From Escherichia coli (GTDB taxonomy: Bacteria > Pseudomonadota > Gammaproteobacteria > Enterobacterales > Enterobacteriaceae), in the NCBI RefSeq assembly GCF_041248615.1, contig NZ_CP158426.1: DNA of 64,000 nt. One strand, given 5' to 3'. Of this stretch, positions 7,106 through 49,924 are shown one piece after another; positions within the stretch are counted from its first letter, which is position 1; every line of letters begins with the position of its first letter. Position numbers and translations under genes: made by a program. Below the pieces are notes generated by a model. The model saw nothing but the letters and a program-made list of their open reading frames with translations, did no database searches and had not been told where the DNA came from.

Positions 7106-7122
7106 ATATTGCCGGATAAATT

Positions 7123-7522: not shown

Positions 7523-7528
7523 CCACCA

Positions 7529-7548: not shown

Positions 7549-7555
7549 TATTGAA

Positions 7556-7716: not shown

Positions 7717-10416
7717 ATGCGTAAATATCCTTTAAGTTTACTGAAGGATAAAAATATTGTGACTTTTTTTGATTTCTGGGGAAAAACCCGACGCGGCGAG
7801 AAAGACGGGGGCGACGACTATCACCTTCTTTGCTGGCATTCGCTGGATGTAGCCGCGATGGGCTATTTAATGGTTAAAAGCAATTGCTTCGGACTGGCTG
7901 ACTATTTTCGTCAATTAGAGATTTCTGACAAGGAACAGGCGGCTCAATTTTTCGCCTGGTTGTTGTGCTGGCACGATACTGGTAAATTTGCCCGCTCATT
8001 TCAGCAACTTTACCTGCACCCGAAACTCAGGGTTCCGGAAGGTGCTAGAAAAAATTACGAAAAAATCTCTCATTCAACGCTGGGCTACTGGTTGTGGCAT
8101 CATTATTTAAGTGAATGTCAGGAGTTACTTCCTTCCTCTTCACTCTCTCCCCGCAAACTTACACGTGTAATAGCGATGTGGATGCCCATAACTACCGGGC
8201 ATCATGGTCGCCCGCCTGACCGTATTGATGAACTGGATAATTTTCTGCCTGAAGACAAAGCTGCCGCGCGAGATTTTCTTCTTGAAATCAAACCACTGTT
8301 TCCGCTCATAGAGATCCCCGCATTCTGGGATGATGATGAGGGCATTGAACTTATAAAACACCTTTCCTGGTATATCTCTGCAACCGTCGTGCTCGCAGAC
8401 TGGACGGGTTCGTCAACGCGATTTTTTCCACGCGTCGCACACCCAATGGATATTAAAGGTTACTGGCAGAAAACTTTAGTTCAGGCTCAAAACGCCTTAA
8501 CCGTCTTTCCTCTAAAAGCAAAAGTCGCGCCTTTCACCGGAATTAATACGCTGTTTCCTTTTATTGAGAATCCGACACCGTTACAGCAAAAGGTGCTGGA
8601 TCTGGATATCAGCCAGCCAGGGCCACAGTTATTTATTCTGGAAGATGTGACTGGCGCAGGTAAAACGGAAGCGGCGCTTATCCTGGCGCACAGGTTGATG
8701 GCTGCGGGTAAAGCGCAGAGTTTGTTTTTTGGCCTGCCAACAATGGCAACGGCCAATGCCATGTACGATCGACTGGTCAAAACCTGGCTTGCTTTCTATT
8801 CGCCAGAGTCCCGCCCCAGCCTGGTGCTGGCACACAGTGCCCGAACATTAATGGACCGCTTTAATGAATCACTCTGGTCCGGTGATTTAGTCGGGTCAGA
8901 AGAACCGGATGAACAAACGTTCAGTCAGGGATGTGCGGCCTGGTTTGCCGACAGTAACAAGAAGGCGCTACTGGCTGAAATTGGCGTCGGCACGCTGGAT
9001 CAGGCGATGATGGCGGTGATGCCGTTCAAACATAATAATGTGCGGCTTCTGGGACTGAGTAACAAAATCCTGCTGGCTGATGAGATCCATGCCTGTGACG
9101 CTTACATGTCATGCATTCTTGAAGGGCTGATCGAGCGGCAGGCGCGTGGCGGAAACAGCGTCATTTTGCTTTCTGCCACGTTATCTCAACAGCAGTGCGA
9201 CAAACTCGTTGCTGCCTTTGCGCGTGGTACAGAGGGCCAGCAAGAAGCTCCGTTCCTGGAAAAGGATGATTACCCCTGGCTGACGCACGTTACGAAATCC
9301 GATGTGCATTCACACCGGGTAGCGACGCGCAAAGACGTTGAGCGTAGCGTGAGCGTGGGTTGGCTTCATAGCGAACAAGAATGTATTGCGCGTATCGAAT
9401 CGGCAGTAAGTCAGGGGAAATGCATCGCCTGGATCCGGAATTCTGTCGATGACGCTATTAAGGTTTATCGTCAGTTGCTTGCCCGCGGCGTCATTCCTGC
9501 TTCCAGCCTTTCTCTTTTTCATAGCCGCTTTGCTTTTAGCGATCGCCAGCGAATTGAAACGGAAACGCTGGCACGCTTCGGTAAAAGTTGTAGTTTACAG
9601 AGATCATCACAAGTCATTGTTTGTACACAAGTAATTGAACAAAGTGTGGATATTGACCTGGACGAAATGATCTCCGACCTGGCCCCTGTTGATTTGCTGA
9701 TCCAGCGAGCGGGGCGATTACAGCGGCATATCCGCGATATTAATGGTCAGTTAAAGCGTGACGGAAAAGACGAGCGTTCTCCTCCTGAATTGCTGATTCT
9801 GGCCCCCGTCTGGGACGACTCTCCGGGTGATGAATGGTTTGGCAGAGCCATGCGTAACAGTGCATATGTCTACCCCGATCATGGGCGAATCTGGCTGACG
9901 CAGCGTGTGCTGCGTCAGCAAGGCGCTATTCAGATGCCACACTCAGCCCGGCTTCTGATTGAATCAGTCTACGGTGAGGACGTGGTAATGGCGGAAGGGT
10001 TTGCCCGCAGCGAGCAGGAGCAAGTGGGCAAATATTACTGCGATCGCGCAATGGCTAAAAAGTTTGTCCTGAACTTCAAGCCTGGCTATGCCGCCAATAT
10101 CAACGATTACCTTCCGGAAAAGCTGTCGACACGTCTGGCGGAGGAGTCTGTTTCCCTGTGGCTGGCTACCTGTATTGCCAGTGTGGTGAAGCCTTATGCC
10201 AACGGTGCTCACGCATGGGAAATGAGCGTTGTCAGAGTGCGTCGAAGCTGGTGGAAAAAACATCGGGATGAGTTTTCTTTACTGGAAGGGGAAGCGTTCA
10301 GGCAGTGGTGCATTGAACAGCGGAAAGATCCGGAGATGGCAAACGTGATTTTAGTTACCGATGACGAAAGTTGCGGGTATTCGGCTATGGAAGGATTGAC
10401 TGGCAAGGTTGGTTGA
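7717..10416 (+). CDS. cas3: Cas3 HD-nuclease/helicase, type I-E
   Basis: 899 aa; HD region near N-terminus (LCWHDTGKF), helicase Walker A (TGAGKTEAAL) and DEIH box (LLADEIHACD); position between cysH and cse1; N-terminus unlike K-12 YgcB as I recall it. Confidence 0.9.
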   Translation: MRKYPLSLLKDKNIVTFFDFWGKTRRGEKDGGDDYHLLCWHSLDVAAMGYLMVKSNCFGLADYFRQLEISDKEQAAQFFAWLLCWHDTGKFARSFQQLYLHPKLRVPEGARKNYEKISHSTLGYWLWHHYLSECQELLPSSSLSPRKLTRVIAMWMPITTGHHGRPPDRIDELDNFLPEDKAAARDFLLEIKPLFPLIEIPAFWDDDEGIELIKHLSWYISATVVLADWTGSSTRFFPRVAHPMDIKGYWQKTLVQAQNALTVFPLKAKVAPFTGINTLFPFIENPTPLQQKVLDLDISQPGPQLFILEDVTGAGKTEAALILAHRLMAAGKAQSLFFGLPTMATANAMYDRLVKTWLAFYSPESRPSLVLAHSARTLMDRFNESLWSGDLVGSEEPDEQTFSQGCAAWFADSNKKALLAEIGVGTLDQAMMAVMPFKHNNVRLLGLSNKILLADEIHACDAYMSCILEGLIERQARGGNSVILLSATLSQQQCDKLVAAFARGTEGQQEAPFLEKDDYPWLTHVTKSDVHSHRVATRKDVERSVSVGWLHSEQECIARIESAVSQGKCIAWIRNSVDDAIKVYRQLLARGVIPASSLSLFHSRFAFSDRQRIETETLARFGKSCSLQRSSQVIVCTQVIEQSVDIDLDEMISDLAPVDLLIQRAGRLQRHIRDINGQLKRDGKDERSPPELLILAPVWDDSPGDEWFGRAMRNSAYVYPDHGRIWLTQRVLRQQGAIQMPHSARLLIESVYGEDVVMAEGFARSEQEQVGKYYCDRAMAKKFVLNFKPGYAANINDYLPEKLSTRLAEESVSLWLATCIASVVKPYANGAHAWEMSVVRVRRSWWKKHRDEFSLLEGEAFRQWCIEQRKDPEMANVILVTDDESCGYSAMEGLTGKVG

Positions 10417-10513
10417 GATGCCTGCGACAGGGCTCTCTGAATAGTTGATACACCGAAAAGGATGGAATGATGGACAACCGACCTAGGATGGTCTTTTTTA
10501 CGAGAGGATGCGT

Positions 10514-12076
10514 ATGAACTCGTTTTCACTTCTGACAACCCCGTGGTTGCCCGTTCGTTATAAAGACGGAACGACAGGCAAACTGGCGCCTGTCGATCTG
10601 GCGGATGAAAATGTTGTCGATATTGCTGCGCCACGGGCAGATCTCCAGGGAGCGGCATGGCAGTTTTTGCTGGGGCTACTACAAACCAGCTTTGCGCCAA
10701 AAGATCATCGTCGTTGGGATGATATCTGGGAAGACGGACTGGAATCTGAAAAGCTACGGGAAGCATTGCTGTCCTTAGAACACGCTTTCCAGTTTGGGCC
10801 AGATTCCCCTTCATTTATGCAGGATTTCGAGGCGCTCACAGGAGATAAAGTTCAGGTCGCTTCGCTACTGCCTGAGATTCCCGGCGCTCAAACAACGAAG
10901 TTTAATAAAGACCACTTTATCAAGCGTGGTGTAACGGAATACCTGTGCCCACATTGTTCTGCGTTAGCTCTGTTCTCCCTACAGTTAAATGCGCCGTCAG
11001 GTGGTAAAGGCTACCGCACCGGTTTACGCGGCGGTGGGCCGATGACCACTCTGATTGAATTACAGGAATATCAGGGCAATCAACAAACGCCCTTGTGGCG
11101 CAAACTGTGGCTCAATGTGATGCCGCAGGACGAAGCCGACTTACCGCTACCCAAAAAATTTGACGATCTGGTTTTCCCCTGGCTTGGCCCGACGCGTACC
11201 AGCGAACTGGCCGGTGCGGTGGTAACCGATGATCAGGTTAATAAACTCCAGGCGTACTGGGGAATGCCGCGGCGTATTCGTATTGATTTTAATACCACGA
11301 CAGTCGGCAACTGCGATATTTGCGGCGAGCAGAACGACGCGCTCCTGAGCCTGATGACGACCAAAAATTACGGCGCGAATTATGCCATGTGGCAGCATCC
11401 CTTAACGCCTTACCGTGTACCCCTTAAAGAGGGCGGCGAGTTTTACTCGGTCAAACCACAACCAGGCGGTTTAATCTGGCGCGACTGGTTAGGCCTTATC
11501 GAAACGGGTAAATCAGAAAACAATACGGAACTTCCCGCGCTGGTGGTGAAACTCTTTAATGCCAGCAGTCTCAAGCAGGCAAAAGTGGGCCTGTGGGGAT
11601 TTGGTTATGATTTTGACAACATGAAAGCGCGCTGTTGGTACGAACACCATTTTCCGCTGCTGCTCGATAAAAAAGAAGGCCAGATACCGAAGCTGCGGCT
11701 GGCTGCGCAAACGGCTTCACGGATTCTGAGTCTGTTACGGAGTGCATTGAAAGAAGCGTGGTTCTCCGATCCAAAAGGTGCACGGGGTGATTTCAGTTTT
11801 GTGGATATCGACTTCTGGAACAAAACTCAGCATCGCTTCCTGAGGTTAGTGCGCCACATTGAAGAAGGTCAGGATGCGGATGAATTACTCAGCAAATGGC
11901 AAAAGGAAATTTGGTTATTCGCGCGTCAGGATTTTGACGAGCGTGTCTTCACCAATCCATATGAGCCCGTTGATTTGAAACGCGTCATGACCGCGCGCAA
12001 GAAATATTTTACAACATCGGCGGAGAAGCAAAATGCTAAAGCCGCCAGGGAGAAAAAGCAGGAGGCTGCTGAATGA
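10514..12076 (+). CDS. casA: Cascade large subunit Cse1 (CasA/Cas8e)
   Basis: About 520 aa ORF first in the Cascade operon; ORF track starts at 10508 but the second ATG (10514) has better GAGAGG spacing. Confidence 0.8.
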   Translation: MNSFSLLTTPWLPVRYKDGTTGKLAPVDLADENVVDIAAPRADLQGAAWQFLLGLLQTSFAPKDHRRWDDIWEDGLESEKLREALLSLEHAFQFGPDSPSFMQDFEALTGDKVQVASLLPEIPGAQTTKFNKDHFIKRGVTEYLCPHCSALALFSLQLNAPSGGKGYRTGLRGGGPMTTLIELQEYQGNQQTPLWRKLWLNVMPQDEADLPLPKKFDDLVFPWLGPTRTSELAGAVVTDDQVNKLQAYWGMPRRIRIDFNTTTVGNCDICGEQNDALLSLMTTKNYGANYAMWQHPLTPYRVPLKEGGEFYSVKPQPGGLIWRDWLGLIETGKSENNTELPALVVKLFNASSLKQAKVGLWGFGYDFDNMKARCWYEHHFPLLLDKKEGQIPKLRLAAQTASRILSLLRSALKEAWFSDPKGARGDFSFVDIDFWNKTQHRFLRLVRHIEEGQDADELLSKWQKEIWLFARQDFDERVFTNPYEPVDLKRVMTARKKYFTTSAEKQNAKAAREKKQEAAE

Positions 12077-12609
12077 GTATTGTAAAAGAGGAGCACAAAG
12101 CCACGCTGCGTAAATGGCACGAAGAGTTGCAGGAAAAACGCGGCAATCGTGCCAGTCTGCGGCGTAGCACAACGGTTAATGATGTTTGTCTGTCAGAAGG
12201 GTTTCGTTCTCTGCTGATGCAGACCCACACTTTGTGGAAAATTGAAGCACAAGAGTGGCGTTTTACCGCACTGGCGCTGGTCGCCGCAGTTAGCGCCAAT
12301 GTTAAAGCTATTGATGAACGGCAGCCTTTTGCCGCGCAGCTGGCGGCGGTAATGTCGGAGGGGCGTTTTACTCGCCTGTCGGCAGTAAAAACGCCTGATG
12401 ATTTACTGCGTCAGTTACGTCGCGCGGTCAAATTATTAAATGGTTCCGTCAATCTTATCTCTTTGGCAGAAGATATTTTCCGCTGGTGCCAGGAGAGCGA
12501 CGACCTGCTCAATCATCACCGCCGCCAGCAGCGGCCAACAGAATTTATCCGTATCCGCTGGGCGCTGGAATATTACCAGGCTGGCGACGCCGATAACGAA
12601 CAAAATTAA
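12073..12609 (+). CDS. casB: Cascade small subunit Cse2 (CasB)
   Basis: 178 aa; overlaps casA stop by 4 nt; position and size fit Cse2. Confidence 0.8.
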   Translation: MSIVKEEHKATLRKWHEELQEKRGNRASLRRSTTVNDVCLSEGFRSLLMQTHTLWKIEAQEWRFTALALVAAVSANVKAIDERQPFAAQLAAVMSEGRFTRLSAVKTPDDLLRQLRRAVKLLNGSVNLISLAEDIFRWCQESDDLLNHHRRQQRPTEFIRIRWALEYYQAGDADNEQN

Positions 12610-12623
12610 TAAAGGACTATCTC

Positions 12624-13679
12624 ATGACGACATTTATTCAGCTTCATTTGTTAACCGCTTACCCTGCTGCCAACCTTAACCGTGATGACACCGGTGCGCC
12701 AAAAACTGTGGTACTGGGTGGAGCAACGCGTCTGCGCGTTTCCTCACAAAGTCTGAAACGTGCGTGGCGCACTTCTGCACTTTTTGAACAGGCACTGGCG
12801 GGCCATATTGGTATTCGCAGTGGGCGTATTGCGCGTGAGGCGGCAACTATCCTGATTGAGAAAGGCATCGAAGAGAAAAAAGCCATCGAATGGGCGGCAA
12901 AAATTGCGGATTATCTTGGGAAAGCTAAAAACGACAAAAAACCAAAAGATCCGCTCACTAACGCCGAAACTGAACAGCTAGTCCATATCAGCCCGGCAGA
13001 ATTTGACGCCGTAAAAGCGCTGGCCCATCAACTGGCCGAAGAAAAGCGCGCGCCAAAAGAGGAAGATCTCGCTTTGTTACGTAAAGATCGCATGGCGGTA
13101 GATATCGCTATGTTTGGTCGTATGCTGGCGAATAAACCCGAATTTAATGTTGAAGCCGCCTGCCAGGTCGCGCATGCATTTGGTGTCAGTGAAACGATTG
13201 TCGAAGATGATTTTTTCACCGCCGTTGATGATTTGCGCCAGGCTTCTGAAGATGCCGGTGCCGGGCATCTTGGTGAAACCGGATTCGGTTCTGCGCTGTT
13301 CTACACCTATATCTGCATCGATAAAGATCTGCTGGTCGAAAACCTCGGCGGTGACGAAGCGTTAGCTAATCAGACCTTGCGCGCCTTTACGGAAGCCGCA
13401 CTTAAAGTCTCCCCAACCGGCAAACAGAACAGCTTTGCCAGCCGTGCCTACGCCTCCTGGGCGCTGGCAGAAAAAGGCACTGAACAACCACGCTCTCTGG
13501 CGGCGGCTTTCTATGAACCCATTAATGGCACCCGGCAGTTAGATGTGGCGGTGCAGCGTATTACAACGCTTCGCGAAAATATGAATACGGTCTATGAACA
13601 GAAGACCGAATGCGCAAGCTTTGACGTGATGAACAAACAGGGAAGCATGAAGGACGTGCTGGACTTTATCTGCGCGTAA
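12624..13679 (+). CDS. casC: Cascade backbone subunit Cas7e (CasC)
   Basis: 351 aa; N-terminus MTTFIQLHLLTAYPAANLNRDDTGAPK resembles the Cas7e N-terminus. Confidence 0.85.
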   Translation: MTTFIQLHLLTAYPAANLNRDDTGAPKTVVLGGATRLRVSSQSLKRAWRTSALFEQALAGHIGIRSGRIAREAATILIEKGIEEKKAIEWAAKIADYLGKAKNDKKPKDPLTNAETEQLVHISPAEFDAVKALAHQLAEEKRAPKEEDLALLRKDRMAVDIAMFGRMLANKPEFNVEAACQVAHAFGVSETIVEDDFFTAVDDLRQASEDAGAGHLGETGFGSALFYTYICIDKDLLVENLGGDEALANQTLRAFTEAALKVSPTGKQNSFASRAYASWALAEKGTEQPRSLAAAFYEPINGTRQLDVAVQRITTLRENMNTVYEQKTECASFDVMNKQGSMKDVLDFICA

Positions 13680-13689
13680 GGGGCGGCTA

Positions 13690-14436
13690 ATGAGCCAATA
13701 TTTGATTTTTCAGCTTCATGGGCCAATGGCATCCTGGGGCGTCGATGCCCCCGGCGAAGTGCGTCATACCCATGAACTGCCTTCGCGCTCAGCATTGCTG
13801 GGGCTGCTGGCTGCCGGGGTAGGGATTCGGCGTGATGATACCGAACGATTAAACGCGTTTAACCGCCACTATTCACTGGTGGTTTGCGCCAGCCGTAACC
13901 CGCGCTGGGCACGGGATTATCACACGGTCCAGATGCCAAAAGAGGTGCGTAAAGCGCGTTATTTCAGCCGTCGCGAAGAGTTGAGCGCCCCTGATCTTCT
14001 GAGCGCGATTATCTCCCGGCGCGACTACTACACCGATGCCTGGTGGATGGTGGCGGTGGCAACAACCCCCGATGCGCCTTACAGGCTTGAACAGTTGCAG
14101 GACGGTTTACGTCATCCGGTTTTTCCGCTTTATCTGGGGCGAAAAAGTCATCCGCTGGCGTTACCACTTGCGCCGTTACTGCTCGAAGGCAACGCGTCTG
14201 ATGTCTTACGTAACGCATACCAACAGTATCAGGATAGTTTCCGCGAACTGAAAGTCTCACTCCCGAAACTTCAGGATGAATGCTGGTGGGAAGGGGAACA
14301 CGACGGCCTGGTCGCGAGCAAAATATTACGTCGCCGGGATGTTCCTTTAAATCGTCAGCAGTGGCTGTTTGGGGAACGCACCATCAATCAGGGGCCGTGG
14401 CTCAGCAAGGAGGAACCATGTACCTCTCAAGAATAA
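13690..14436 (+). CDS. casD: Cascade subunit Cas5e (CasD)
   Basis: 248 aa; N-terminus MSQYLIFQLHGPMASWG parallels K-12 CasD MRSYLILRLAGPMQAWG. Confidence 0.85.
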   Translation: MSQYLIFQLHGPMASWGVDAPGEVRHTHELPSRSALLGLLAAGVGIRRDDTERLNAFNRHYSLVVCASRNPRWARDYHTVQMPKEVRKARYFSRREELSAPDLLSAIISRRDYYTDAWWMVAVATTPDAPYRLEQLQDGLRHPVFPLYLGRKSHPLALPLAPLLLEGNASDVLRNAYQQYQDSFRELKVSLPKLQDECWWEGEHDGLVASKILRRRDVPLNRQQWLFGERTINQGPWLSKEEPCTSQE

Positions 14437-15064
14437 CCTTACATACCGGCCAGCTTTCGCCTGCGCAGTTGCTGCATCTGGTGGATCGCGGTGAATATGT
14501 AATGCATCAGTGGCTGTGGGATCTTTTTCCTGGCGGCAAAGAAAGGCAATTTCTTTATCGTCGGGAAGAACTCCAGGGGGCGTTTCGCTTTTTTGTCCTG
14601 TCGCAGGAACGCCCGGCGGAAAGTGATATTTTCACCATCGAATGCCGACCATTTGCGCCAGAGTTGCGTACCGGACAATCCCTTTGTTTCAACCTGCGGG
14701 CGAATCCAACAATTTGTAAAGCGGGCAAACGCCACGACTTGCTGATGGAGGCGAAACGGCAGGTGAGGGGGCAGGTGGAAGGAAGTGATGTCTGGTTGCA
14801 TCAACAACAGGCGGCGCTGGACTGGCTGGCAGCGCAGGGGGAAAGAAGCGGTTTTACACTACTGGATACCTCGGTCGATGCCTACCGACAACAGCAACTG
14901 CGGCGGGAAAACTCCCGGCAACTGATCCAGTTCAGTAGCGTGGATTATACGGGGATGCTTACGGTCACCGATCCTGGGTTATTTCTGCAACGTCTGAGCC
15001 AGGGGTATGGCAAAAGCCGCGCGTTCGGCTGTGGTCTGATGCTGATCAAACCCGGAGCAGAGGC

Positions 15065-15068
<4 letters not shown>
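14418..15068 (+). CDS. casE: Cas6e (CasE) pre-crRNA endoribonuclease
   Basis: ORF 14280..15068 over-extended; start placed at MYLSRITLHTGQ (14418) with AGGAGG RBS at 14409-14414; 216 aa. Confidence 0.85.
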
Positions 15069-16278
<1,210 letters not shown>

Positions 16279-16374
16279 GTTATCTGTTCTTTAAAAATAA
16301 GGAAATGTTTTAATTTAGTTGGTAGATTGTTGATGCGGAATAAATTTTTTTAAAAACAGTTATGTATGCTTAGT
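16279..16374 (+). promoter_or_regulatory. CRISPR leader
   Basis: AT-rich 96 bp between cas2 stop and first repeat; leader-proximal end of the array. Confidence 0.55.
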
Positions 16375-17074
16375 GTGTTCCCCGCGTCAGCGGGGATAAA
16401 CCGGACTCAGTTTTTCCCTGCTGACCCTCCGAAGGGTGTTCCCCGCGTCAGCGGGGATAAACCGCCATGCCGCGCCAGCTCTGCGAAACAGCCCGCGTGT
16501 TCCCCGCGTCAGCGGGGATAAACCGATCCAAAGATAGTCGCCCCGATTGCCAAATTGGTGTTCCCCGCGTCAGCGGGGATAAACCGACGGTATTGTTCAG
16601 ATCCTGGCTTGCCAACAGGTGTTCCCCGCGTCAGCGGGGATAAACCGGCGGCACTAACGTGATAATCACGATCAATTATGTGTTCCCCGCGTCAGCGGGG
16701 ATAAACCGTGACGGTCCGAAAAAAGTTGGCTGAAGAAATTGTGTTCCCCGCGTCAGCGGGGATAAACCGGTTATTGCGTTTTCCTCACCTGCGGCGAGTC
16801 CGTGTTCCCCGCGTCAGCGGGGATAAACCGCATTCCGTGCAGCGGTCTGAATAATTGCCGCGGTGTTCCCCGCGTCAGCGGGGATAAATCGAGTAACGAC
16901 GAAAAAATACAGGCACGGGCCAGGTGTTCCCCGCGTCAGCGGGGATAAACCGATCCCCGCAGGTATCGCGCAGCTATCGATCGAGTGTTCCCCGCGTCAG
17001 CGGGGATAAACCGGACGCACTGGATGCGATGATGGACATCACTTGGAGTTCCCCGCCCCTGCGGTAGAACTCCC
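16375..17074 (+). CRISPR. type I-E CRISPR array: 12 repeats (29 nt), 11 spacers (all 32 nt), 61-nt period
   Basis: Repeat GTGTTCCCCGCGTCAGCGGGGATAAACCG starting at 16375, 16436, 16497, 16558, 16619, 16680, 16741, 16802, 16863, 16924, 16985; repeat 9 has C->T at 16889; degenerate terminal repeat GAGTTCCCCGCCCCTGCGGTAGAACTCCC at 17046-17074. Confidence 0.97.
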
Positions 17075-27161: not shown

Positions 27162-28154
27162 ATGAGTCAGAATACGCTGAAAGTTCATGATTTAAATGAA
27201 GATGCGGAATTTGATGAGAACGGAGTTGAGGTTTTTGACGAAAAGGCCTTAGTAGAAGAGGAACCCAGTGATAACGATTTGGCCGAAGAGGAACTGTTAT
27301 CGCAGGGAGCCACACAGCGTGTGTTGGACGCGACTCAGCTTTACCTTGGTGAGATTGGTTATTCACCACTGTTAACGGCCGAAGAAGAAGTTTATTTTGC
27401 GCGTCGCGCACTGCGTGGAGATGTTGCCTCCCGCCGCCGGATGATCGAGAGTAACTTGCGTCTGGTGGTAAAAATTGCCCGCCGTTATGGCAATCGTGGT
27501 CTGGCGTTGCTGGACCTGATCGAAGAGGGCAACCTGGGGCTGATCCGCGCGGTAGAGAAGTTTGACCCGGAACGTGGTTTCCGCTTCTCAACATACGCAA
27601 CCTGGTGGATTCGCCAGACGATCGAACGGGCGATTATGAACCAAACCCGTACTATTCGTTTGCCGATTCACATCGTAAAGGAGCTGAACGTTTACCTGCG
27701 AACCGCACGCGAGTTGTCCCATAAACTGGACCACGAACCAAGTGCGGAAGAGATCGCAGAGCAACTGGATAAGCCAGTTGATGACGTCAGCCGTATGCTT
27801 CGTCTTAACGAGCGCATTACCTCGGTAGACACCCCGCTGGGTGGTGATTCCGAAAAAGCGTTGCTGGACATCCTGGCCGATGAAAAAGAGAACGGTCCGG
27901 AAGATACCACGCAAGATGACGATATGAAGCAGAGCATCGTCAAATGGCTGTTCGAGCTGAACGCCAAACAGCGTGAAGTACTGGCACGTCGATTCGGTTT
28001 GCTGGGGTACGAAGCGGCAACACTGGAAGATGTAGGTCGTGAAATTGGCCTCACCCGTGAACGTGTTCGCCAGATTCAGGTTGAAGGCCTGCGCCGTTTG
28101 CGCGAAATCCTGCAAACGCAGGGGCTGAATATCGAAGCGCTGTTCCGCGAGTAA
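27162..28154 (+). CDS. rpoS: RNA polymerase sigma factor RpoS (sigma-38)
   Basis: ORF 27126..28154 over-extended; start at [17 protein letters not shown] (27162), 330 aa; sigma-70 family regions 2-4. Confidence 0.95.
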
Positions 28155-28170
28155 GTAAGCATCTGTCAGA

Positions 28171-28207
28171 AAGGCCAGTCTCAAGCGAGGCTGGCCTTTT
28201 TCTTTTG
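28171..28207 (+). terminator. rho-independent terminator after rpoS
   Basis: Stem AGGCCAG/CTGGCCT with loop, followed by TTTTTCTTTT. Confidence 0.6.
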
Positions 28208-28274
28208 TTTGGGAAGTCGGTGTGTTTTGTCGCCTGGATAAGACTCGTCAGCGTCCTACCCGGCAATCAGCATC

Positions 28275-28682
28275 CTATTTGCTCATCATCTTGCGCACCA
28301 ACTGCATAAACAGCTCCTTCTCTTCTGCACTCAAACGCCCCAAAAATTCCTCATCCACACTGTCACCAATGGGGATCGCCGCAGCAAGTACCTTTTCTCC
28401 TTCGGCAGTCAGCCAGACAAAGCGACGCCGCTTGTCAGCGGCGTCATGTTCACGTCTGACTAAGCCACGATTTTCCATTCTTGCCAACATTTCTGCCAGC
28501 GTTGCTTTGGTGCTGACTGCTGCTTCTATCAGTGCCACCTGTTCGATACCAGGCTTATCAGCAATGGCGCGCATCACCGCGTACTGTGGTTTGGTGAGGT
28601 TAGGTAACTCGTGCTGCCAGCGAGCCGTGTGCTGCTGAAAAAGCTGTCGTAACTGATGGAACGCTTTATTTCGTAACGCCAT
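28275..28682 (-). CDS. MarR-family (SlyA-like) transcriptional regulator
   Basis: ORF 28275..28715; winged-helix MarR-like region; start placed at MALRNKAF (28682), which has a GGAG RBS; divergent from ecdB. Confidence 0.8.
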   Translation of the reverse strand: MALRNKAFHQLRQLFQQHTARWQHELPNLTKPQYAVMRAIADKPGIEQVALIEAAVSTKATLAEMLARMENRGLVRREHDAADKRRRFVWLTAEGEKVLAAAIPIGDSVDEEFLGRLSAEEKELFMQLVRKMMSK

Positions 28683-28798
28683 GTAAACTCCGGGCAAACT
28701 ATCTGCCGCTATCATAGCGGTTTTTCAGTGACGAAGAAGATGTTGTTACTTTTCAGTGCTTGCCGCGATGAAAACAGAGGCGTATTTTAATAATAACG

Positions 28799-28810
28799 TT
28801 CGTATACGAA
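28799..28810. promoter_or_regulatory. perfect 12-bp palindrome TTCGTATACGAA; candidate MarR-type operator at the ecdB promoter
   Basis: Self-complementary 12-mer 19 nt upstream of the ecdB ATG in the divergent regulator-ecdB intergenic region. Confidence 0.35.
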
Positions 28811-28828
28811 TAATTAAGAGAATAAACA

Positions 28829-29422
28829 ATGAGACTGATCGTCGGGATGACAGGGGCTACCGGTGCGCCTCTTGGGGTGGCATTACTGCAAGCGCTGCGG
28901 GAGATGCCGAATGTCGAGACTCATCTGGTGATGTCGAAGTGGGCGAAAACCACCATTGAACTGGAAACGCCTTACAGCGCTCGCGATGTTGCTGCCCTCG
29001 CAGACTTCAGTCATAACCCGGCGGATCAGGCGGCGACCATCTCCTCAGGTTCCTTTCGTACCGACGGCATGATCGTTATTCCGTGCAGTATGAAAACGCT
29101 CGCCGGTATCCGTGTCGGTTACGCCGATGGCCTGGTAGGGCGCGCGGCGGACGTCGTGCTCAAAGAAGGCCGCAAACTAGTGCTGGTGCCGCGTGAAATG
29201 CCGCTTAGCACAATCCATCTCGAAAATATGCTCGCACTTTCGCGCATGGGCGTGGCGATGGTGCCGCCGATGCCTGCCTTTTATAACCATCCCGAAACGG
29301 TAGATGACATTGTCCACCACGTGGTAGCCCGCGTGCTGGATCAATTTGGCCTCGAACATCCTCACGCCAGGCGCTGGCAAGGATTGCCGCAGGCCCGGAA
29401 TTTTTCTCAGGAGAATGAATAA
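28829..29422 (+). CDS. ecdB: UbiX-family flavin prenyltransferase (aka pad1)
   Basis: 197 aa; UbiX/Pad1-like N-terminus MRLIVGMTGATGAPLGVALL; 1-nt overlap with ecdC. Confidence 0.85.
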   Translation: MRLIVGMTGATGAPLGVALLQALREMPNVETHLVMSKWAKTTIELETPYSARDVAALADFSHNPADQAATISSGSFRTDGMIVIPCSMKTLAGIRVGYADGLVGRAADVVLKEGRKLVLVPREMPLSTIHLENMLALSRMGVAMVPPMPAFYNHPETVDDIVHHVVARVLDQFGLEHPHARRWQGLPQARNFSQENE

Positions 29423-30849
29423 TGGCATTTGATGATTTACGCAGCTTTTTACAGGCGCTTGATGACCACGGCCAGTTACTGAAAATCAGCGAAGAGGTGA
29501 ACGCGGAACCGGATCTGGCAGCCGCAGCCAACGCCACCGGGCGTATCGGCGACGGCGCGCCCGCGCTTTGGTTTGATAATATTCGCGGCTTTATCGATGC
29601 CCGCGTGGCAATGAACACCATCGGTTCCTGGCAGAACCACGCGATTTCCCTCGGCCTGCCGCCAAACACCCCGGTTAAAAAACAGATTGATGAGTTTATC
29701 CGCCGCTGGGATAACTTCCCCATTACCCCGGAGCGCCGCGCCAATCCAGCCTGGGCGCAGAACACCGTCGATGGCGACGAGATCAACCTGTTCGATATTC
29801 TGCCGCTGTTTCGTTTAAACGACGGTGATGGCGGTTTCTATCTCGATAAAGCGTGCGTGGTTTCCCGCGATCCGCTCGACCCGGATAACTTCGGCAAGCA
29901 GAACGTCGGCATCTACCGCATGGAAGTGAAGGGCAAACGTAAGCTCGGCCTGCAACCGGTGCCGATGCACGATATCGCTCTGCATCTGCATAAAGCGGAA
30001 GAACGCGGTGAAGATCTGCCGATTGCCATCACCCTGGGTAACGATCCGATCATCACCCTGATGGGCGCCACGCCGCTGAAATACGATCAGTCTGAGTACG
30101 AAATGGCGGGCGCGCTGCGCGAAAGCCCGTACCCGATCGCCACCGCCCCGCTGACCGGTTTTGATGTGCCGTGGGGCTCGGAAGTGATCCTCGAAGGGGT
30201 TATCGAAAGTCGTAAACGTGAGATTGAAGGGCCGTTCGGTGAGTTTACCGGCCACTACTCCGGCGGGCGTAACATGACCGTGGTGCGTATCGATAAAGTC
30301 TCTTACCGTACCAAACCGATTTTCGAATCGCTCTATCTTGGTATGCCGTGGACCGAAATCGACTACCTGATGGGGCCTGCCACCTGCGTGCCGCTGTATC
30401 AGCAACTGAAAGCCGAGTTCCCGGAAGTGCAGGCGGTAAACGCCATGTACACCCACGGCCTGTTGGCGATTATCTCCACCAAAAAACGCTACGGCGGCTT
30501 TGCCCGCGCGGTGGGCCTGCGTGCAATGACCACGCCGCACGGTCTGGGCTACGTGAAGATGGTGATTATGGTCGATGAAGACGTTGATCCGTTCAACCTG
30601 CCGCAGGTGATGTGGGCGCTCTCCTCGAAAGTGAACCCGGCAGGCGACCTGGTGCAGTTGCCAAATATGTCCGTGCTGGAACTCGACCCTGGCTCAAGCC
30701 CGGCGGGGATCACCGACAAGCTGATTATCGACGCCACCACGCCTGTCGCCCCGGACAACCGTGGTCACTACAGCCAGCCGGTGGTGGATTTACCGGAAAC
30801 CAAAGCCTGGGCTGAAAAACTGACCGCTATGCTGGCCGCACGTAAATAA
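29422..30849 (+). CDS. ecdC: UbiD-family (prFMN-dependent) aromatic acid decarboxylase (aka yclC)
   Basis: 475 aa, UbiD-like; operon partner of the UbiX homologue. Confidence 0.85.
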   Translation: MAFDDLRSFLQALDDHGQLLKISEEVNAEPDLAAAANATGRIGDGAPALWFDNIRGFIDARVAMNTIGSWQNHAISLGLPPNTPVKKQIDEFIRRWDNFPITPERRANPAWAQNTVDGDEINLFDILPLFRLNDGDGGFYLDKACVVSRDPLDPDNFGKQNVGIYRMEVKGKRKLGLQPVPMHDIALHLHKAEERGEDLPIAITLGNDPIITLMGATPLKYDQSEYEMAGALRESPYPIATAPLTGFDVPWGSEVILEGVIESRKREIEGPFGEFTGHYSGGRNMTVVRIDKVSYRTKPIFESLYLGMPWTEIDYLMGPATCVPLYQQLKAEFPEVQAVNAMYTHGLLAIISTKKRYGGFARAVGLRAMTTPHGLGYVKMVIMVDEDVDPFNLPQVMWALSSKVNPAGDLVQLPNMSVLELDPGSSPAGITDKLIIDATTPVAPDNRGHYSQPVVDLPETKAWAEKLTAMLAARK

Positions 30850-30859
30850 GGAGAACAAG

Positions 30860-31096
30860 ATGATTTGTCCACGTTGTGCTGATGAACAGATTGAAGTGAT
30901 GGCGAAATCGCCGGTAAAAGATGTCTGGACAGTCTATCAGTGCCAGCATTGCCTCTATACCTGGCGCGATACCGAACCGCTTCGCCGCACCAGCCGCGAA
31001 CATTACCCGGAAGCGTTTCGTATGACGCAGAAAGACATTGATGACGTGCCAATGGTGCCGAGCATTCCGCCGCTGCTGGCGGAAGGTAAGCGTTAA
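30860..31096 (+). CDS. ecdD: small zinc-ribbon subunit of phenolic acid decarboxylase (BsdD/VdcD-like)
   Basis: 78 aa; CPRC...CQHC pair typical of the small D subunit. Confidence 0.75.
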   Translation: MICPRCADEQIEVMAKSPVKDVWTVYQCQHCLYTWRDTEPLRRTSREHYPEAFRMTQKDIDDVPMVPSIPPLLAEGKR

Positions 31097-31104
31097 TAAA
31101 AAGT

Positions 31105-31132
31105 GCCGGGTAGTGGCTTTGCTTTACCCGGC
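31105..31132. terminator. hairpin between convergent ecdD and pphB
   Basis: Perfect 8-bp stem GCCGGGTA/TACCCGGC with 12-nt loop, then CTCATTACTTTATTTTAT. Confidence 0.45.
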
Positions 31133-31136
31133 CTCA

Positions 31137-31793
31137 TTACTTTATTTTATAAAATGACAGCCGCCCGCTTTTCGGCGATCCGGTATCAATATAAATCTGG
31201 TTTGCGAACGTCTGAATGTTATCAAACATCATATGTCCAAATATAAAATAATCAGCGCCGTTTATTTGTTGTAACTCGCCATTAAGCGATTTCTGCACAC
31301 GATCAACAGGCCAGAGTAATTCTCTCTCCGCTATTTCTTTGCCAAAGAGATATTCACTCCCCGGATAATCTGCATGTGCGATGACATATTTTATTATGTC
31401 GTTAGTGATTTCAATAATATGTGGAAGGTGATGAAATTTCAGCAACAGATCTATTGCTTCTTGTTGTTCCGTCTCATTTAATTCAAAGAACCAGTCGCCG
31501 CCGCTGGCAAGCCACATATTGCCATCGCCGGTCGCGAACGCATCCAACGCCATCGCTTCATGGTTGCCTTTAACCGATGTAAACCAGGGCTGGTTTAGCA
31601 GGTGCAGCACGTTAAGACTCTCCGGCCCACGATCAATATTATCGCCGACAGAAATAAGTAAGTCGGCTTCAGGGCAAAAAGAGAGTTGATGTAAGCGGGA
31701 TTGTAATAATTGATAGTCACCATGAATATCACCAACGGCCCATATATGGCGATAGTGATGGGCATTGATTTTTTGATAGCGTGTAGATGGCAT
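31137..31793 (-). CDS. pphB: serine/threonine protein phosphatase 2
   Basis: 218 aa; metallophosphatase motifs GDIHG, GDNIDRG, GNHE. Confidence 0.9.
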   Translation of the reverse strand: MPSTRYQKINAHHYRHIWAVGDIHGDYQLLQSRLHQLSFCPEADLLISVGDNIDRGPESLNVLHLLNQPWFTSVKGNHEAMALDAFATGDGNMWLASGGDWFFELNETEQQEAIDLLLKFHHLPHIIEITNDIIKYVIAHADYPGSEYLFGKEIAERELLWPVDRVQKSLNGELQQINGADYFIFGHMMFDNIQTFANQIYIDTGSPKSGRLSFYKIK

Positions 31794-31898
31794 GGTTTTA
31801 CCCTGTAAAATAAGCTTTCCTATTATACAGGGTATTTTTATTTGATTCGTCAGTTGTCGTTAATATTCCCGATAGCAAAAGACTATCGGGAATTGTTA

Positions 31899-34460
31899 TT
31901 ACACCAGACTCTTCAAGCGATAAATCCATTCCAGCGCCTGACGCGGGGTGAGTGAATCCGGGTCCAGGTTTTCCAGTGCCTCGACCGCAGGCGACGTTTC
32001 TTCTGGCACTGACAGCAAAGACATTTGCGTACCATCCACTTGCGTAGCGGCGGCGTTCGGCGAAATGCTTTCCAGCTCACGCAGTTTTTGCCGTGCGCGC
32101 TTAATAACCTCTTTTGGCACGCCCGCCAGAGCAGCAACCGCCAGGCCGTAGCTTTTGCTCGCCGCGCCATCCTGCACGCTGTGCATAAAGGCAATGGTGT
32201 CGCCGTGCTCCAGTGCATCAAGATGCACGTTGGCGACGCCTTCCATTTTCTCCGGTAACTGGGTTAGCTCGAAATAGTGGGTGGCAAACAACGTCAACGC
32301 TTTAATCTTATTCGCCAGATTTTCCGCGCACGCCCACGCCAGCGACAGACCATCGTAAGTGGAGGTTCCGCGCCCAATCTCATCCATCAGCACCAGACTG
32401 TACTCGGTGGCGTTATGTAAAATATTGGCGGTTTCGGTCATCTCCACCATAAAGGTTGAACGCCCGGATGCCAGATCATCCGCTGCCCCTACGCGGGTAA
32501 AGATGCGATCGATAGGTCCAATCTCGACTTTTTGTGCCGGTACATAGCTGCCGATGTAGGCCATCAGCGCAATCAGTGCGGTCTGGCGCATATAGGTACT
32601 TTTACCGCCCATATTCGGACCGGTAATGATCAACATGCGACGCTGCGGCGACAGGTTCAGCGGGTTGGCGATAAATGGCTCGTTCAGTACCTGTTCAACC
32701 ACCGGATGGCGGCCTTCGGTGATGCGAATACCCGGTTTATCAATGAAGGTCGGGCAGGTGTAGTTCAGGGTATAGGCCCGCTCCGCCAGGTTAACCAGCA
32801 CATCAAGTTCTGCCAGTGCGCTTGCGCTCTGTTGCAACGCTTCCAGATGCGGCAACAGCAGGTCGAACAGCTCTTCATAAAGCTGTTTTTCCAGTGCCAG
32901 TGCTTTGCCTTTTGAGGTGAGAACTTTATCTTCGTACTCTTTTAGCTCTGGAATAATGTAGCGTTCGGCGTTTTTCAGCGTCTGGCGGCGCATGTAGTTA
33001 ATCGGTGCCAGATGGCTTTGTCCACGGCTGATCTGAATGTAATAACCATGCACCGCGTTAAATCCGACTTTCAGCGTGTCCAGGCCGGTACGTTCACGCT
33101 CGCGGACTTCCAGACGCTCCAGATAATCGGTCGCGCCGTCAGCCAGCGCGCGCCACTCATCCAGCTCTTCGTTATAGCCCGATGCGATAACACCACCGTC
33201 GCGCACCAGTACCGGCGGTGTGTCGATAATGGCCCGCTCCAGCAGATCGCGCAGTTCGGCAAACTCACCCATCTTCTCACGCAGCGCCTGTACCGGTGCA
33301 CTATTGACAGTTTCTAACTGCGCGCGCAGCTCCGGCAGTTGCTGGAAAGCGTGACGCATACGGGCCAGATCGCGTGGGCGAGCAGTTCGTAAAGCCAGAC
33401 GCGCCAGAATACGTTCCAGGTCGCCGACCTGACGCAGTACCGGCTGCAGCTCGGCGGTGAAATCCTGCAATGCGCCAATAGTTTGCTGGCGCTCAAGCAA
33501 GACGCGGGTATCGCGCACTGGCATATGCAGCCAGCGTTTCAGCATACGGCTGCCCATCGGCGTGACGGTGCAGTCGAGCACAGAAGCCAGCGTATTTTCC
33601 GCACCACCCGCCAGGTTCTGGGTGATTTCCAGATTACGACGCGTCGCGGCATCCATAATGATGCTGTCCTGCTCACGTTCCATGGTGATGGAACGAATAT
33701 GCGGCAGAGTCGTACGTTGGGTATCTTTCGCATACTGCAACAGACAACCGGCAGCACAAAGTCCGCGCGGCGCGTTCTCGACGCCAAAACCGACCAGATC
33801 GCGGGTGCCAAATTGCAGATTCAACTGCTGGCGCGCGGTGTCGATTTCAAACTCCCACAGCGGGCGACGGCGCAGGCCGCGACGGCCTTCAATTAACGAC
33901 ATTTCAGCAAAATCTTCTGCATACAGCAGTTCCGCAGGATTAGTGCGTTGCAGTTCTGCCGCCATCGTTTCCCGGTCAGCCGGTTCGCTCAGGCGAAAAC
34001 GACCGGAGCTGATATCCAGCGTCGCGTAGCCGAAACCTTTGCTGTCCTGCCAGATAGCCGCCAGCAGGTTGTCCTGACGCTCCTGCAACAGGGCTTCATC
34101 GCTGATGGTGCCTGGCGTAACGATACGCACAACTTTGCGCTCAACCGGACCTTTGCTGGTCGCCGGATCGCCAATTTGTTCGCAGATGGCAACGGACTCG
34201 CCCTGATTCACCAGTTTGGCGAGGTAGTTTTCCACCGCATGGTAGGGAATCCCCGCCATCGGGATCGGCTCTCCCGCCGAAGCACCGCGTTTGGTCAGTG
34301 AAATATCCAGCAGTTGCGATGCGCGTTTTGCGTCGTCATAAAACAGTTCATAAAAATCACCCATCCGGTAAAACAGCAGGATCTCGGGATGCTGGGCTTT
34401 CAGCTTGAGATATTGCTGCATCATGGGCGTATGGGCATCGAAATTTTCTATTGCACTCAT
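31899..34460 (-). CDS. mutS: DNA mismatch repair protein MutS
   Basis: 853 aa; Walker [10 protein letters not shown]; full-length. Confidence 0.97.
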
Positions 34461-34706
34461 GGGGTTATGTCCGGTTCCCTGATATTAAATGGGGTGTGAT
34501 GGTTTTTATTTTCGTTGTAATCACATAAGGCGCACATGATACCGGAGTTAATCATTTCAGGGGAAGAAGCGAACGGCGAGTTCTTGATGGTGATTCCGGG
34601 AAAGATGCTGTTTTGCAGCTTTTGCGTGATGATTATGAAGCAAGTACGCAAAATTGCGTCGGTTGAATAAACCTCCTCCTTCAGAGCCATAGTCCCCTTT
34701 CAAATT

Positions 34707-35129: not shown

Positions 35130-35558
35130 TTACGCTTTGGTGGCAATCAGGATGGCTGATGCTTTGATCAATGCAATAACGCGCGAGCCAGTGGTGAGTT
35201 TCATTTCATCCTGACTTTCATTTGTTACCACTGCCACAATTTCAAAACCCGCATCCGTTTTGATATGGACAGTGGCGTTCACTGCGCCTTCGGTGATTGT
35301 CGACACGCTGCCAGCAAACTGGTTGCGAGCAGAGAATTTCAGTCCACAGTCTTCCGTTGCCAGCGTTACCCACGGGGCTTTAATCAGGGCAATCGCTTCT
35401 TTCCCTTTCGCCAGACCCAGCGCTTGCTGGCTGCTGTGAGTCACAATTGCCACCAGCTTTGCACCACCTGCCAGCGTCAGTTCTACTTCGTCATTCACCG
35501 CGCCCATTGCTACTGCGCTAACTGTTCCGGTTAATTGATTTCTTGCTGAAACTGCCAT
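35130..35558 (-). CDS. molybdopterin/molybdate-binding protein, tandem Mop (TOBE) domains
   Basis: ORF 35130..35597; start placed at MAVSARNQLTGTV (35558) with AGGAGG RBS; two roughly 70-aa repeats (SARNQLTGTVSAV... / SARNQFAGSVSTI...). Confidence 0.8.
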   Translation of the reverse strand: MAVSARNQLTGTVSAVAMGAVNDEVELTLAGGAKLVAIVTHSSQQALGLAKGKEAIALIKAPWVTLATEDCGLKFSARNQFAGSVSTITEGAVNATVHIKTDAGFEIVAVVTNESQDEMKLTTGSRVIALIKASAILIATKA

Positions 35559-49612: not shown

Positions 49613-49924
49613 ATGCACATCATTTCGAAAGCGCCATTTGAAGAGTGTGCGCGCAAATATCCTAACGACGCTCTGGCTCTACACTCATTGTATCGGGTTA
49701 TTAAGGAAACGGATTTTTCTACACCAGAAGAAATGCGAACGGCGTTTCCTAACCTCGACAATTTTAAATATCGCAACAAATGGTACGTTCTGGATGTCGG
49801 CGGGAACAATCTTAGGGTTATTGCCTACATAAACTTTGTTAATAAGCGGTTCTTTGTGAAGCACATAACGAATCACGCAGAGTATGACAAACTGACACGT
49901 TACTACAGAGAGAACAAAGAATGA
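49613..49924 (+). CDS. HigB-like type II toxin (RelE/ParE superfamily mRNA interferase)
   Basis: 103 aa; alignable by eye to K-12 HigB as I recall it (shared ...KYP...FPSLDNFKY...GGNELRVVA... pattern); AAGGAAG RBS. Confidence 0.8.
   Translation: MHIISKAPFEECARKYPNDALALHSLYRVIKETDFSTPEEMRTAFPNLDNFKYRNKWYVLDVGGNNLRVIAYINFVNKRFFVKHITNHAEYDKLTRYYRENKE

Follow-up and report, generated by a model that had tools for sequence, protein, structure and literature searches.

What lies between rpoS and pphB in this Escherichia coli strain, and which compound do the encoded proteins recognize and convert? An earlier note on the 64,000-nucleotide stretch analyzed here (the window) had read this segment as a MarR/SlyA-like regulator gene transcribed divergently from a three-gene decarboxylase operon, placed in the polymorphic rpoS–mutS interval in an O157-like arrangement. 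Our analysis cleanly confirms that reading and adds answers on the substrate and the inducer. We conclude with high confidence that this is the hosA-ecdBCD cassette already known from E. coli (also described as slyA/hosA-pad1-yclC and kpdR-kpdBCD) in its short O157:H7/EHEC-1 configuration, with a 4-hydroxybenzoate (4-HBA)-induced decarboxylase mechanism. Gene and operator identities, intact frames, conserved motifs, layout and distribution were computed in this analysis, while the substrate range, induction by 4-HBA and the role of EcdD come from published work on orthologues with 95–99% identity (100% at some of the residues checked).

Layout of the rpoS–pphB interval

The interval holds a MarR gene on the minus strand and, on the plus strand, an operon of UbiX-like, UbiD-like and zinc-ribbon genes, and all four open reading frames were found where the earlier note had placed them. 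On the left, rpoS is followed by an intrinsic terminator on the plus strand (28168..28201), with a GC-rich stem of 14–15 bp, a subsequent T-run and a fold energy of −25 kcal/mol (z −3.9). The pphB–rpoS interval of K-12 shares with the window just the 46 nt directly after rpoS (28155–28200), and the variable segment therefore begins at about 28200/28201, where K-12 homology ends. An Rfam match of ctRNA_p42d to this terminator hairpin (28.7 bits against a threshold of 50) was judged to be due to chance, and the Rfam scan of 27900–32000 returned no other match.

On the right, the conserved flank is pphB on the minus strand (31137–31793; NCBIfam NF007425, 463 bits, cutoff 332), and homology with K-12 and with the longer form of the locus picks up again at about 31138. 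A junction spacer of 40 nt (31097..31136) separates ecdD from pphB. It contains a hairpin (31105–31132) with fold energies of −18.4 (plus strand; z −2.4) and −19.9 kcal/mol (minus strand; z −4.3), the minus-strand stem being followed by a T-run. This hairpin is probably a bidirectional terminator serving both ecdD and pphB.

EcdB, EcdC and EcdD constitute a three-subunit decarboxylase system

The three plus-strand genes are contiguous and co-oriented: ecdB and ecdC share one base where stop and start codon meet (TAATG), and a gap of 10 nt precedes ecdD, which has a GGAG ahead of it. The assignment to the ecdBCD/vdcBCD/bsdBCD family is borne out by the NCBIfam VdcB, VdcC and VdcD profiles, all of which score above their cutoffs; the family matches lie well outside what chance would give. 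The profile search that the earlier note had named as a check thus matched all three proteins, B and C being recognized by Pfam as well and D matching the ShdD subunit in PDB 7AE4.

EcdB (kpdB/pad1; 28829..29422, plus strand) is a predicted UbiX-type flavin prenyltransferase making prenylated FMN (prFMN), with 312.5 bits to VdcB (cutoff 290), 257 bits to the UbiX subfamily (cutoff 188) and a Pfam Flavoprotein match at E 2.5e-44. It is identical to O157:H7 Pad1 (PDB 1SBZ) at 194 of 197 residues (E 1.3e-128).

EcdC (kpdC/yclC; 29422..30849, plus strand) scores 788.9 bits to VdcC (cutoff 650), has the UbiD_N/UbiD/UbiD_C domains of Pfam, and is identified here as a UbiD-family prFMN-dependent 4-hydroxybenzoate/vanillate decarboxylase. 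It carries the motifs NVGIYR (N161, R166), MHD (H183), EYE (E225/E227) and EGPFGE (E269, E274), whose residues we take to be the equivalents of N168/R173/H191/E233/E277/E282 in Fdc1, as assigned by motif spacing rather than by structural alignment; the metal/prFMN ligands and the E-R-E catalytic triad expected of a VdcC-type enzyme are thus represented. Assignment as UbiD proper was rejected, with 173.5 bits to the NF008175 equivalog model against a cutoff of 788. Residues 3–471 align at E 3.5e-160 to PDB 7AE4_A, the VdcC chain of the S. hydroxybenzoicus VdcCD structure (PMC8379154).

EcdD (kpdD; 30860..31096, plus strand) scores 120 bits to VdcD (cutoff 30) and matches ShdD (PDB 7AE4_a) at E 2e-11. 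A dedicated Pfam family for subunit D was not found, the Pfam matches being weak zinc-ribbon-like ones alone. The four zinc cysteines C3, C6, C28 and C31, together with R36 and E39, stand at the same positions as in ShVdcD, and VdcD is described as a Zn-ribbon allosteric activator (PMC8379154). By analogy, EcdD would be the zinc-ribbon subunit that activates EcdC.

The cassette therefore has in common with the VdcBCD, BsdBCD and ShdBCD systems (Streptomyces sp. D7, B. subtilis and Sedimentibacter hydroxybenzoicus; PDB 7AE4) the three-subunit B/C/D organization, the prFMN chemistry and a zinc-ribbon D subunit with cysteines at positions 3, 6, 28 and 31. Unlike in those systems, the regulator is the MarR-type HosA; that of B. 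subtilis is the LysR-type BsdA. Substrates differ too, the Streptomyces enzyme being restricted to vanillate and that of E. coli preferring 4-HBA. With UbiX/UbiD of ubiquinone biosynthesis, EcdB and EcdC share two protein families and the cofactor logic, but EcdC acts on a soluble rather than a polyprenylated substrate and needs the additional D subunit. In RefSeq, an identical region of isolate 362 is annotated as [quoted passage not shown], and the NCBI pipeline already names the cassette genes.

HosA and its operator

The divergent gene hosA encodes a MarR-family repressor of 135 residues (28275..28682, minus strand). Although the longest open reading frame runs to 28715, the ATG at 28682 is likely the real start, because it has a GGAG six bases upstream and agrees both with the PGAP start in a near-identical genome and with the N-terminus of crystallised HosA. 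The product matches Pfam MarR and is identical to the "Transcriptional regulator HosA" of PDB 8AGA at 131 of 134 aligned residues (~98%, E 2e-82), and the Sakai orthologue is annotated hosA; the MarR/SlyA-family assignment thus holds. SlyA proper (29 bits, cutoff 120) and MarR proper (27 bits, cutoff 240) were both rejected as the identity of the regulator.

Published work identifies 4-HBA as the effector of HosA (Roy & Ranjan 2016, cited both in PMC6261655 and in bioRxiv 10.1101/2024.04.24.590444), with a Kd of 4.7 uM (PMC6261655), and a crystal structure of the HosA/4-HBA complex has been reported. For HosA of strain UMN026, relief of DNA binding by 4-HBA is described in PMC6261655 and, as cited there, by Roy & Ranjan 2016. 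The contact residues listed in the bioRxiv study (His9, Arg12 and Asp110) and their neighbours F8, F15, H18 and K31 are all conserved in the protein encoded here, which has the change D28N relative to the crystallised protein. By its title, the study of Ferrandiz et al. 2005 (cited in PMC5491219) reports an effect of HosA on the motility of EPEC, and HosA may therefore have targets beyond the ecdBCD operon. HosA is also in use as a biosensor for 4-HBA.

The control region between hosA and ecdB (28683..28828) spans 146 bp with 38% GC. Within it, the HosA operator GTTCGTATACGAAT (28798..28811) lies 18–31 nt upstream of the ecdB ATG, and its inner 12 bp form a perfect palindrome. It matches the published 14-bp operator GTTCGTATACGAAC at 13 of 14 bases with the 12-bp core intact; the perfect 14-bp palindrome is present in strains L002 and Sakai, whereas in the window the final base is T (GAAT instead of GAAC). 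The EMSA/BLI probes used for HosA (PMC6261655 supplement) contain the operator with flanks identical to those of the window. Over the full 64 kb the core is found a single time, where chance would give 0.13 occurrences. We claim no promoter in this region, since the one sigma-70-like match (28787–28814) compares with 2.0 expected by chance.

Proposed mechanism and substrate

These assignments suggest the following scheme. EcdB, a UbiX paralogue, would prenylate reduced FMN to give prFMN, with which EcdC would reversibly and non-oxidatively decarboxylate 4-hydroxybenzoate, yielding phenol, and vanillate, yielding guaiacol. EcdD, with its four-cysteine zinc ribbon, is predicted to bind EcdC stoichiometrically and to be required for its activity. 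HosA would bind the 14-bp palindrome just upstream of ecdB, repressing both the operon and its own gene, until 4-hydroxybenzoate bound at the HosA dimer interface takes it off the DNA. Since 4-hydroxybenzoate would free HosA from DNA, the operon would be induced by its own substrate. Tight repression would presumably also guard the cell's own pool of 4-hydroxybenzoate, the ubiquinone precursor.

The earlier note had held that substrate and inducer are not evident. This is correct for the letters alone; the literature supplies both. Recombinant O157 EcdCD decarboxylates 4-hydroxybenzoate, with the highest activity, and vanillate, according to Table 2 of PMC6644310, which cites Lupa et al. 2005 (compounds 49a and 57a, decoded from the table headings as 4-hydroxybenzoate and vanillate, respectively). 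By analogy with the O157:H7 enzyme, to which it is 98.5–99.4% identical, the enzyme of the window would reversibly decarboxylate 4-hydroxybenzoate and/or vanillate. Through this cassette, about 45% of E. coli strains can make phenol from 4-hydroxybenzoate, a compound that stems from plant phenolics and from the breakdown of parabens.

One could argue that under physiological conditions in the gut the enzyme acts mainly on a different phenolic acid (vanillate, protocatechuate, gallate or a hydroxyarylic acid derived from the diet or from parabens), 4-hydroxybenzoate being no more than the best substrate in vitro. The activity of recombinant O157 EcdCD on vanillate fits this idea, as do the several further hydroxybenzoates taken by the Klebsiella enzyme (PMC6644310 Table 2) and the overlapping substrate ranges of the B. 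subtilis and Sedimentibacter VdcCD enzymes (PMC8379154). We nevertheless consider it unlikely: 4-HBA is both the highest-activity substrate of the E. coli enzyme and the reported HosA effector, crystallised in complex with it, and AroY-type protocatechuate decarboxylases are far more distant from EcdC (E 1e-24 to 1e-27) than VdcC is (3.5e-160). That the genes are decaying remnants without function in this strain, as might be imagined for a deletion and recombination hotspot with one base change in the operator, is extremely improbable given four intact frames with coupled starts and ribosome-binding sites, the retained catalytic and zinc-binding motifs, and the pattern of codon changes relative to Sakai. 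Across ecdBCD these number 83 synonymous and 7 nonsynonymous (56 and 3 in ecdC) despite 3–6% nucleotide divergence, and ecdBCD is thus under purifying selection.

The window carries the short form of the locus

The O157:H7 hosA-kpdBCD locus (ECs_3594-3591; Z4047-Z4045 region) has the same gene content, order and orientation as the window, the order in Sakai being mutS-pphB-kpdD-kpdC-kpdB-hosA-rpoS. This layout has been described as "pattern I", that of O157/EHEC-1, with the genes named kpdD, kpdC, kpdB and slyA (PMC4209514), and as a 2.9-kb hosA-pad1-yclC segment downstream of rpoS (PMC5491219). As in pattern I, the window has the cassette, lacks the genes from ygbN (o454) to ygbI and has ecdD directly next to pphB. 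Sakai has, in addition, an identical 40-nt ecdD–pphB junction, and the O157-like arrangement is thereby established. Protein identity to Sakai is 94.8% for HosA, 98.5% for EcdB, 99.4% for EcdC (472/475) and 98.7% for EcdD, but nucleotide identity over the cassette is just 94–97%, so that the window strain has other alleles. A further difference is the presence of a TOBE-domain gene between ygbA and fhlA, which Sakai does not have. These two differences indicate that the strain is not of the O157 lineage, though the short form is common to both.

In K-12 MG1655 the space between pphB and rpoS is taken up by ygbI-ygbN and the cassette is missing, which agrees with the placement of the cassette in a polymorphic interval. 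The earlier note had singled out ygbI–ygbN homologues as what would speak against its reading; K-12 YgbI–N protein queries gave no match in the rpoS–pphB interval, and elsewhere in the window they matched only srlR (62972–63718), a DeoR paralogue with 29% identity. The description of the cassette as standing "instead of" the K-12 genes is right for the short form but does not extend to the species, for about two thirds of cassette-bearing E. coli also have ygbN-ygbI adjacent to it. In this long form ("pattern IV"), found in EPEC and many other E. coli, hosA-ecdBCD is followed by ygbN-ygbI; the window lacks this block of ~6 kb and has a 32-nt hairpin in its place. A search tolerating up to 6 errors did not find this hairpin in the K-12 locus or in the long form.

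The polymorphism, enzyme, regulator, effector and operator have all been published, and nothing at this locus is new. The rpoS–mutS layout serves as a marker of lineage and pathotype, and the one seen here is an ordinary, known strain-to-strain difference that carries little weight as a discovery.

Distribution and origin of the cassette

Of 5426 complete E. coli genomes, 2417 (44.5%) carry the cassette, some 530–810 of these in the short layout. This patchy presence could mean that it is a small genomic island, acquired recently by horizontal transfer, rather than ancestral DNA lost by K-12. The 57.5% GC of ecdB and ecdC, against 53.2% for the window, points the same way, as does the claim of "acquired from Shigella" in the HosA preprint (10.1101/2024.04.24.590444). 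The GC examination that the earlier note had proposed nonetheless yielded no meaningful deviation: the cassette as a whole has 55.4% GC and the adjoining mutS 56.0%, the compositional outlier being pphB (42.6%), and we rejected GC as uninformative on horizontal transfer. Shigella, moreover, is phylogenetically E. coli. The rpoS–pphB interval contains no integrase, IS, tRNA or flanking direct repeat, and no plasmid copies were found among complete E. coli genomes. Ewers et al., after earlier work, treat the patterns as variants of one locus. A four-gene cassette ~82% identical at the nucleotide level occupies the same rpoS–mutS interval in Klebsiella pneumoniae and Salmonella Senftenberg, which argues for ancestral residence with lineage-specific loss. 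Recent acquisition is, we judge, quite improbable, and because the cassette shares its position with these genera, its loss from K-12 is most likely.

The Klebsiella kpdBCD and Salmonella stdBCD loci both have the same MarR+B+C+D content. The Salmonella cassette is inverted, so that its D end abuts rpoS, and the Klebsiella locus has extra DUF4440, MFS, LysR and hok/gef genes and lacks pphB. More distant copies (75–78% identity) are carried on genuine megaplasmids of Pantoea. Matches labelled as plasmids in PLSDB for E. coli and Klebsiella pneumoniae were set aside, as these records of 4.8–5.4 Mb are evidently mislabelled chromosomes.

Within the species, the cassette is a mosaic produced by recombination, the crossover lying close to where ecdB and ecdC meet. 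Long-form strain L002 has 99–100% nucleotide identity to the window in hosA and ecdB and the same operator region. In a more specific version, which we regard as doubtful and offer very tentatively, a long-form lineage would be the source of hosA-ecdB and a short-form lineage resembling porcine ETEC that of ecdC through mutS, and the degenerate operator half-site (GAAT) together with HosA D28N could alter repression or inducibility. The same tentative proposal holds separately that the 32-nt short-form hairpin suggests an origin of the short form other than by simple deletion of the long form; such a deletion had been proposed earlier.

A MarR-family regulator and a decarboxylase operon between rpoS and pphB

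The interval is bounded on the left by rpoS (27162-28154; terminator at 28168-28201) and on the right by pphB (31137-31793, minus strand), beyond which lies mutS. The ORF list reveals exactly the arrangement that an earlier note had read from the sequence alone, a minus-strand MarR gene (hosA) and three plus-strand ORFs (ecdB, ecdC and ecdD). The longest hosA ORF spans 28275-28715 (146 codons). Its true start is probably the ATG at 28682, giving a 135-aa protein: this codon has a GGAG six bases to its 5' side, PGAP chose the same start in an essentially identical genome, and the N-terminus of crystallised HosA coincides with it. The window is E. coli DNA, and isolate 362 (NZ_OW967178.1) differs from it by 1 base in 15,851. 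On the plus strand, ecdB (28829-29422, 197 aa) and ecdC (29422-30849, 475 aa) overlap by one base (TAATG), while ecdD (30860-31096, 78 aa) starts 10 nt past ecdC with its own GGAG, an arrangement that looks like a translationally coupled operon.

In K-12 MG1655 the gene order is mutS-pphB-ygbI-J-K-L-M-N-rpoS without the cassette, so that ygbI-ygbN stands where the window carries hosA-ecdBCD, as had been claimed. K-12 YgbI-YgbN protein queries gave zero matches in the interval, and only 28155-28200 is common with the K-12 pphB-rpoS DNA.

The proposed UbiX/UbiD/small-subunit identity is borne out by curated NCBIfam models, whose cutoffs all three proteins exceed (EcdB, VdcB, 312.5 bits against a cutoff of 290; EcdC, VdcC, 788.9 against 650; EcdD, VdcD, 120 against 30). 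We thus found neither ygbI-ygbN in the interval nor proteins unmatched by the UbiX/UbiD/BsdD families, the two observations named beforehand as counting against the earlier reading. EcdC as UbiD proper was ruled out, its 173 bits falling short of the 788 required. Pfam assigns Flavoprotein to EcdB, UbiD_N, UbiD and UbiD_C to EcdC and MarR to the regulator, and holds no family for subunit D. EcdD matches ShdD/VdcD of PDB 7AE4 and carries the cysteines that bind zinc in ShVdcD (C3, C6, C28 and C31) as well as R36 and E39. Residues 3-471 of EcdC align with the C chain of 7AE4 (E 3.5e-160), and the motifs NVGIYR, MHD, EYE and EGPFGE are kept; from their spacing and the known residues of Fdc1, we take these to be the Mn/prFMN ligands and the E-R-E triad. 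Of the 197 residues of EcdB, 194 are identical in PDB 1SBZ (O157:H7 "Pad1").

Substrate and inducer

The two points left open in the earlier note, the substrate and the inducer, are already answered by publications. A review table (PMC6644310, which cites Lupa et al. 2005) places the recombinant EcdCD of E. coli O157:H7 among the "4-hydroxybenzoate decarboxylases"; the substrate it decarboxylates best is the compound common to every enzyme of that class, and its second is the sole substrate of vanillate decarboxylase. The EcdCD substrates are therefore 4-hydroxybenzoate (4-HBA) and vanillate. The window's proteins are 98.5% (EcdB), 99.4% (EcdC) and 98.7% (EcdD) identical to those of O157:H7 Sakai, and transfer of function from Sakai should therefore be safe. 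In the homologous VdcCD, the D subunit is strictly required, binds zinc and forms a stoichiometric complex adjoining the E-R-E loops (PMC8379154).

The regulator shares 131 of 134 residues with "Transcriptional regulator HosA" (PDB 8AGA), with six further PDB entries likewise matched, and its Sakai orthologue is annotated hosA; by these matches, we identify the MarR-family regulator of the cassette as HosA. Assignment to SlyA or MarR proper was rejected, the scores being far under both NCBIfam equivalog cutoffs. According to two sources that cite Roy & Ranjan 2016 (Biochemistry 55:1120), a preprint (bioRxiv 10.1101/2024.04.24.590444) and a Science Advances paper (PMC6261655), HosA represses its own gene as well as the hydroxyarylic acid decarboxylase operon, its target is a palindrome 3' of the transcription start, and 4-HBA releases it. 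A Kd of 4.7 uM was measured for 4-HBA (PMC6261655).

The published HosA oligonucleotides (PMC6261655) carry the operator, and their flanks are identical to 28776-28834. In Sakai and in L002, a strain with the long form of the interval, the operator is the perfect palindrome GTTCGTATACGAAC. The predicted operator of the window is GTTCGTATACGAAT (28798-28811, 18-31 nt 5' of the ecdB ATG), with T rather than C at the last position; the window holds a single copy of its 12-bp core, where chance would give 0.13. HosA retains all three published ligand contacts, His9, Arg12 and Asp110, and its residue 28 is N in contrast to D in L002, Sakai and the crystallised protein.

Distribution and ancestry of the cassette

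The cassette is carried by 2417 of 5426 complete E. coli genomes, in every case on the chromosome. Other strains display a long form, rpoS-hosA-ecdBCD-ygbN...ygbI-pphB-mutS. The resemblance to O157-type strains holds, in that Sakai has the same short form (rpoS-hosA-ecdBCD-pphB) with a byte-identical 40-nt ecdD-pphB spacer. About 800 genomes have the short form by joined-match criteria, a count that takes in a few carrying IS1 or some other insertion; a strict 261-nt junction query returns 532. Ewers et al. 2014 named four layouts of the interval, the short one as pattern I, "O157:H7 & EHEC 1 group", and labelled the genes kpdD, kpdC, kpdB and slyA (PMC4209514), and PMC5491219 (citing Herbelin et al. 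2000) places a 2.9-kb hosA-pad1-yclC segment 3' of rpoS. The arrangement is therefore textbook-level for this locus: system and layout are both already known, and the earlier interpretation is supported.

The spacer at 31097-31136 contains a 32-nt hairpin (GCCGGGTA-N12-TACCCGGC, then CTCA) that is identical in Sakai, folds well on either strand and is probably the terminator of ecdD as well as of pphB. In the examined loci of the long form and of K-12 we did not find it; the short form would therefore not have arisen from the sequenced long form by deletion alone.

A preprint suggests acquisition of the cassette as an island (bioRxiv 10.1101/2024.04.24.590444). Against a recent acquisition of this kind, Klebsiella pneumoniae and Salmonella Senftenberg have the same MarR-B-C-D cassette in their rpoS-mutS interval, at ~82% DNA identity in each. 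The K. pneumoniae copy (L008 4880-7728) is oriented as in the window, with DUF4440/MFS/LysR genes and a hok/gef gene as its flanks, whereas that of S. Senftenberg (L007 5996-8838) is inverted relative to rpoS and adjoins ygbI. PLSDB lists the two records as "plasmids", yet they contain chromosomal core genes. We also found no mobile-element signatures in the window's rpoS-pphB interval, which likewise speaks against an island; the GC deviation check proposed in the earlier note proved uninformative. Recent acquisition thus appears less likely, and these comparisons are better explained by a cassette that resided there ancestrally and was lost in particular lineages such as K-12.

Within E. coli, the window's cassette appears to be an intraspecies recombination mosaic. 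Its hosA-ecdB part is 99-100% identical to L002; from ~29200-29400 on (to ~34460), ecdC, ecdD, pphB and mutS are 94-97% identical to L002 and Sakai, and short-form porcine ETEC/O139:H1 strains match the ecdC-through-mutS stretch at 99.8%. Compared with Sakai, ecdBCD diverges by 3-6% in nucleotides, with 83 synonymous vs 7 nonsynonymous codon changes (56 and 3 in ecdC). These counts indicate purifying selection on the operon, which argues against its decay. The corresponding counts are 85 and 1 in mutS, and 16 and 14 in pphB, where GC is low (42.6%); the latter suggests relaxed or diversifying selection on pphB.

Other features of the window

Between ygbA and fhlA, the window has a gene with two TOBE/Mop (molybdenum-pterin binding) domains (35130-35558, minus strand). 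This gene, c3292 in PMC4209514, is present in the window and L002 and missing from K-12 MG1655 and Sakai, and by this comparison constitutes a second presence/absence polymorphism flanking mutS. Since Sakai lacks it, the strain is no O157 relative despite the common short junction. The mutS-ygbA intergenic region encodes a predicted 44-aa hypothetical protein (34536-34670, plus strand; PGAP annotation in isolate 362). Upstream of iap lie a hok/gef family gene (7065-7217), a complete type I-E cas operon from cas3 to cas2e (7412-15973) and a CRISPR array (16070-17013). Between hycI and ascB, a HigB-family toxin gene and an HTH-domain (antitoxin-like) gene occupy ~49613-50340 (plus strand), where the gap in Sakai measures only about 120 bp. 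Finally, norV (~58.7-60.2 kb) is full length (1440 nt in isolate 362) and Sakai has a shorter copy (1236 nt; L003 16527-17762), a further lineage difference inside the window.
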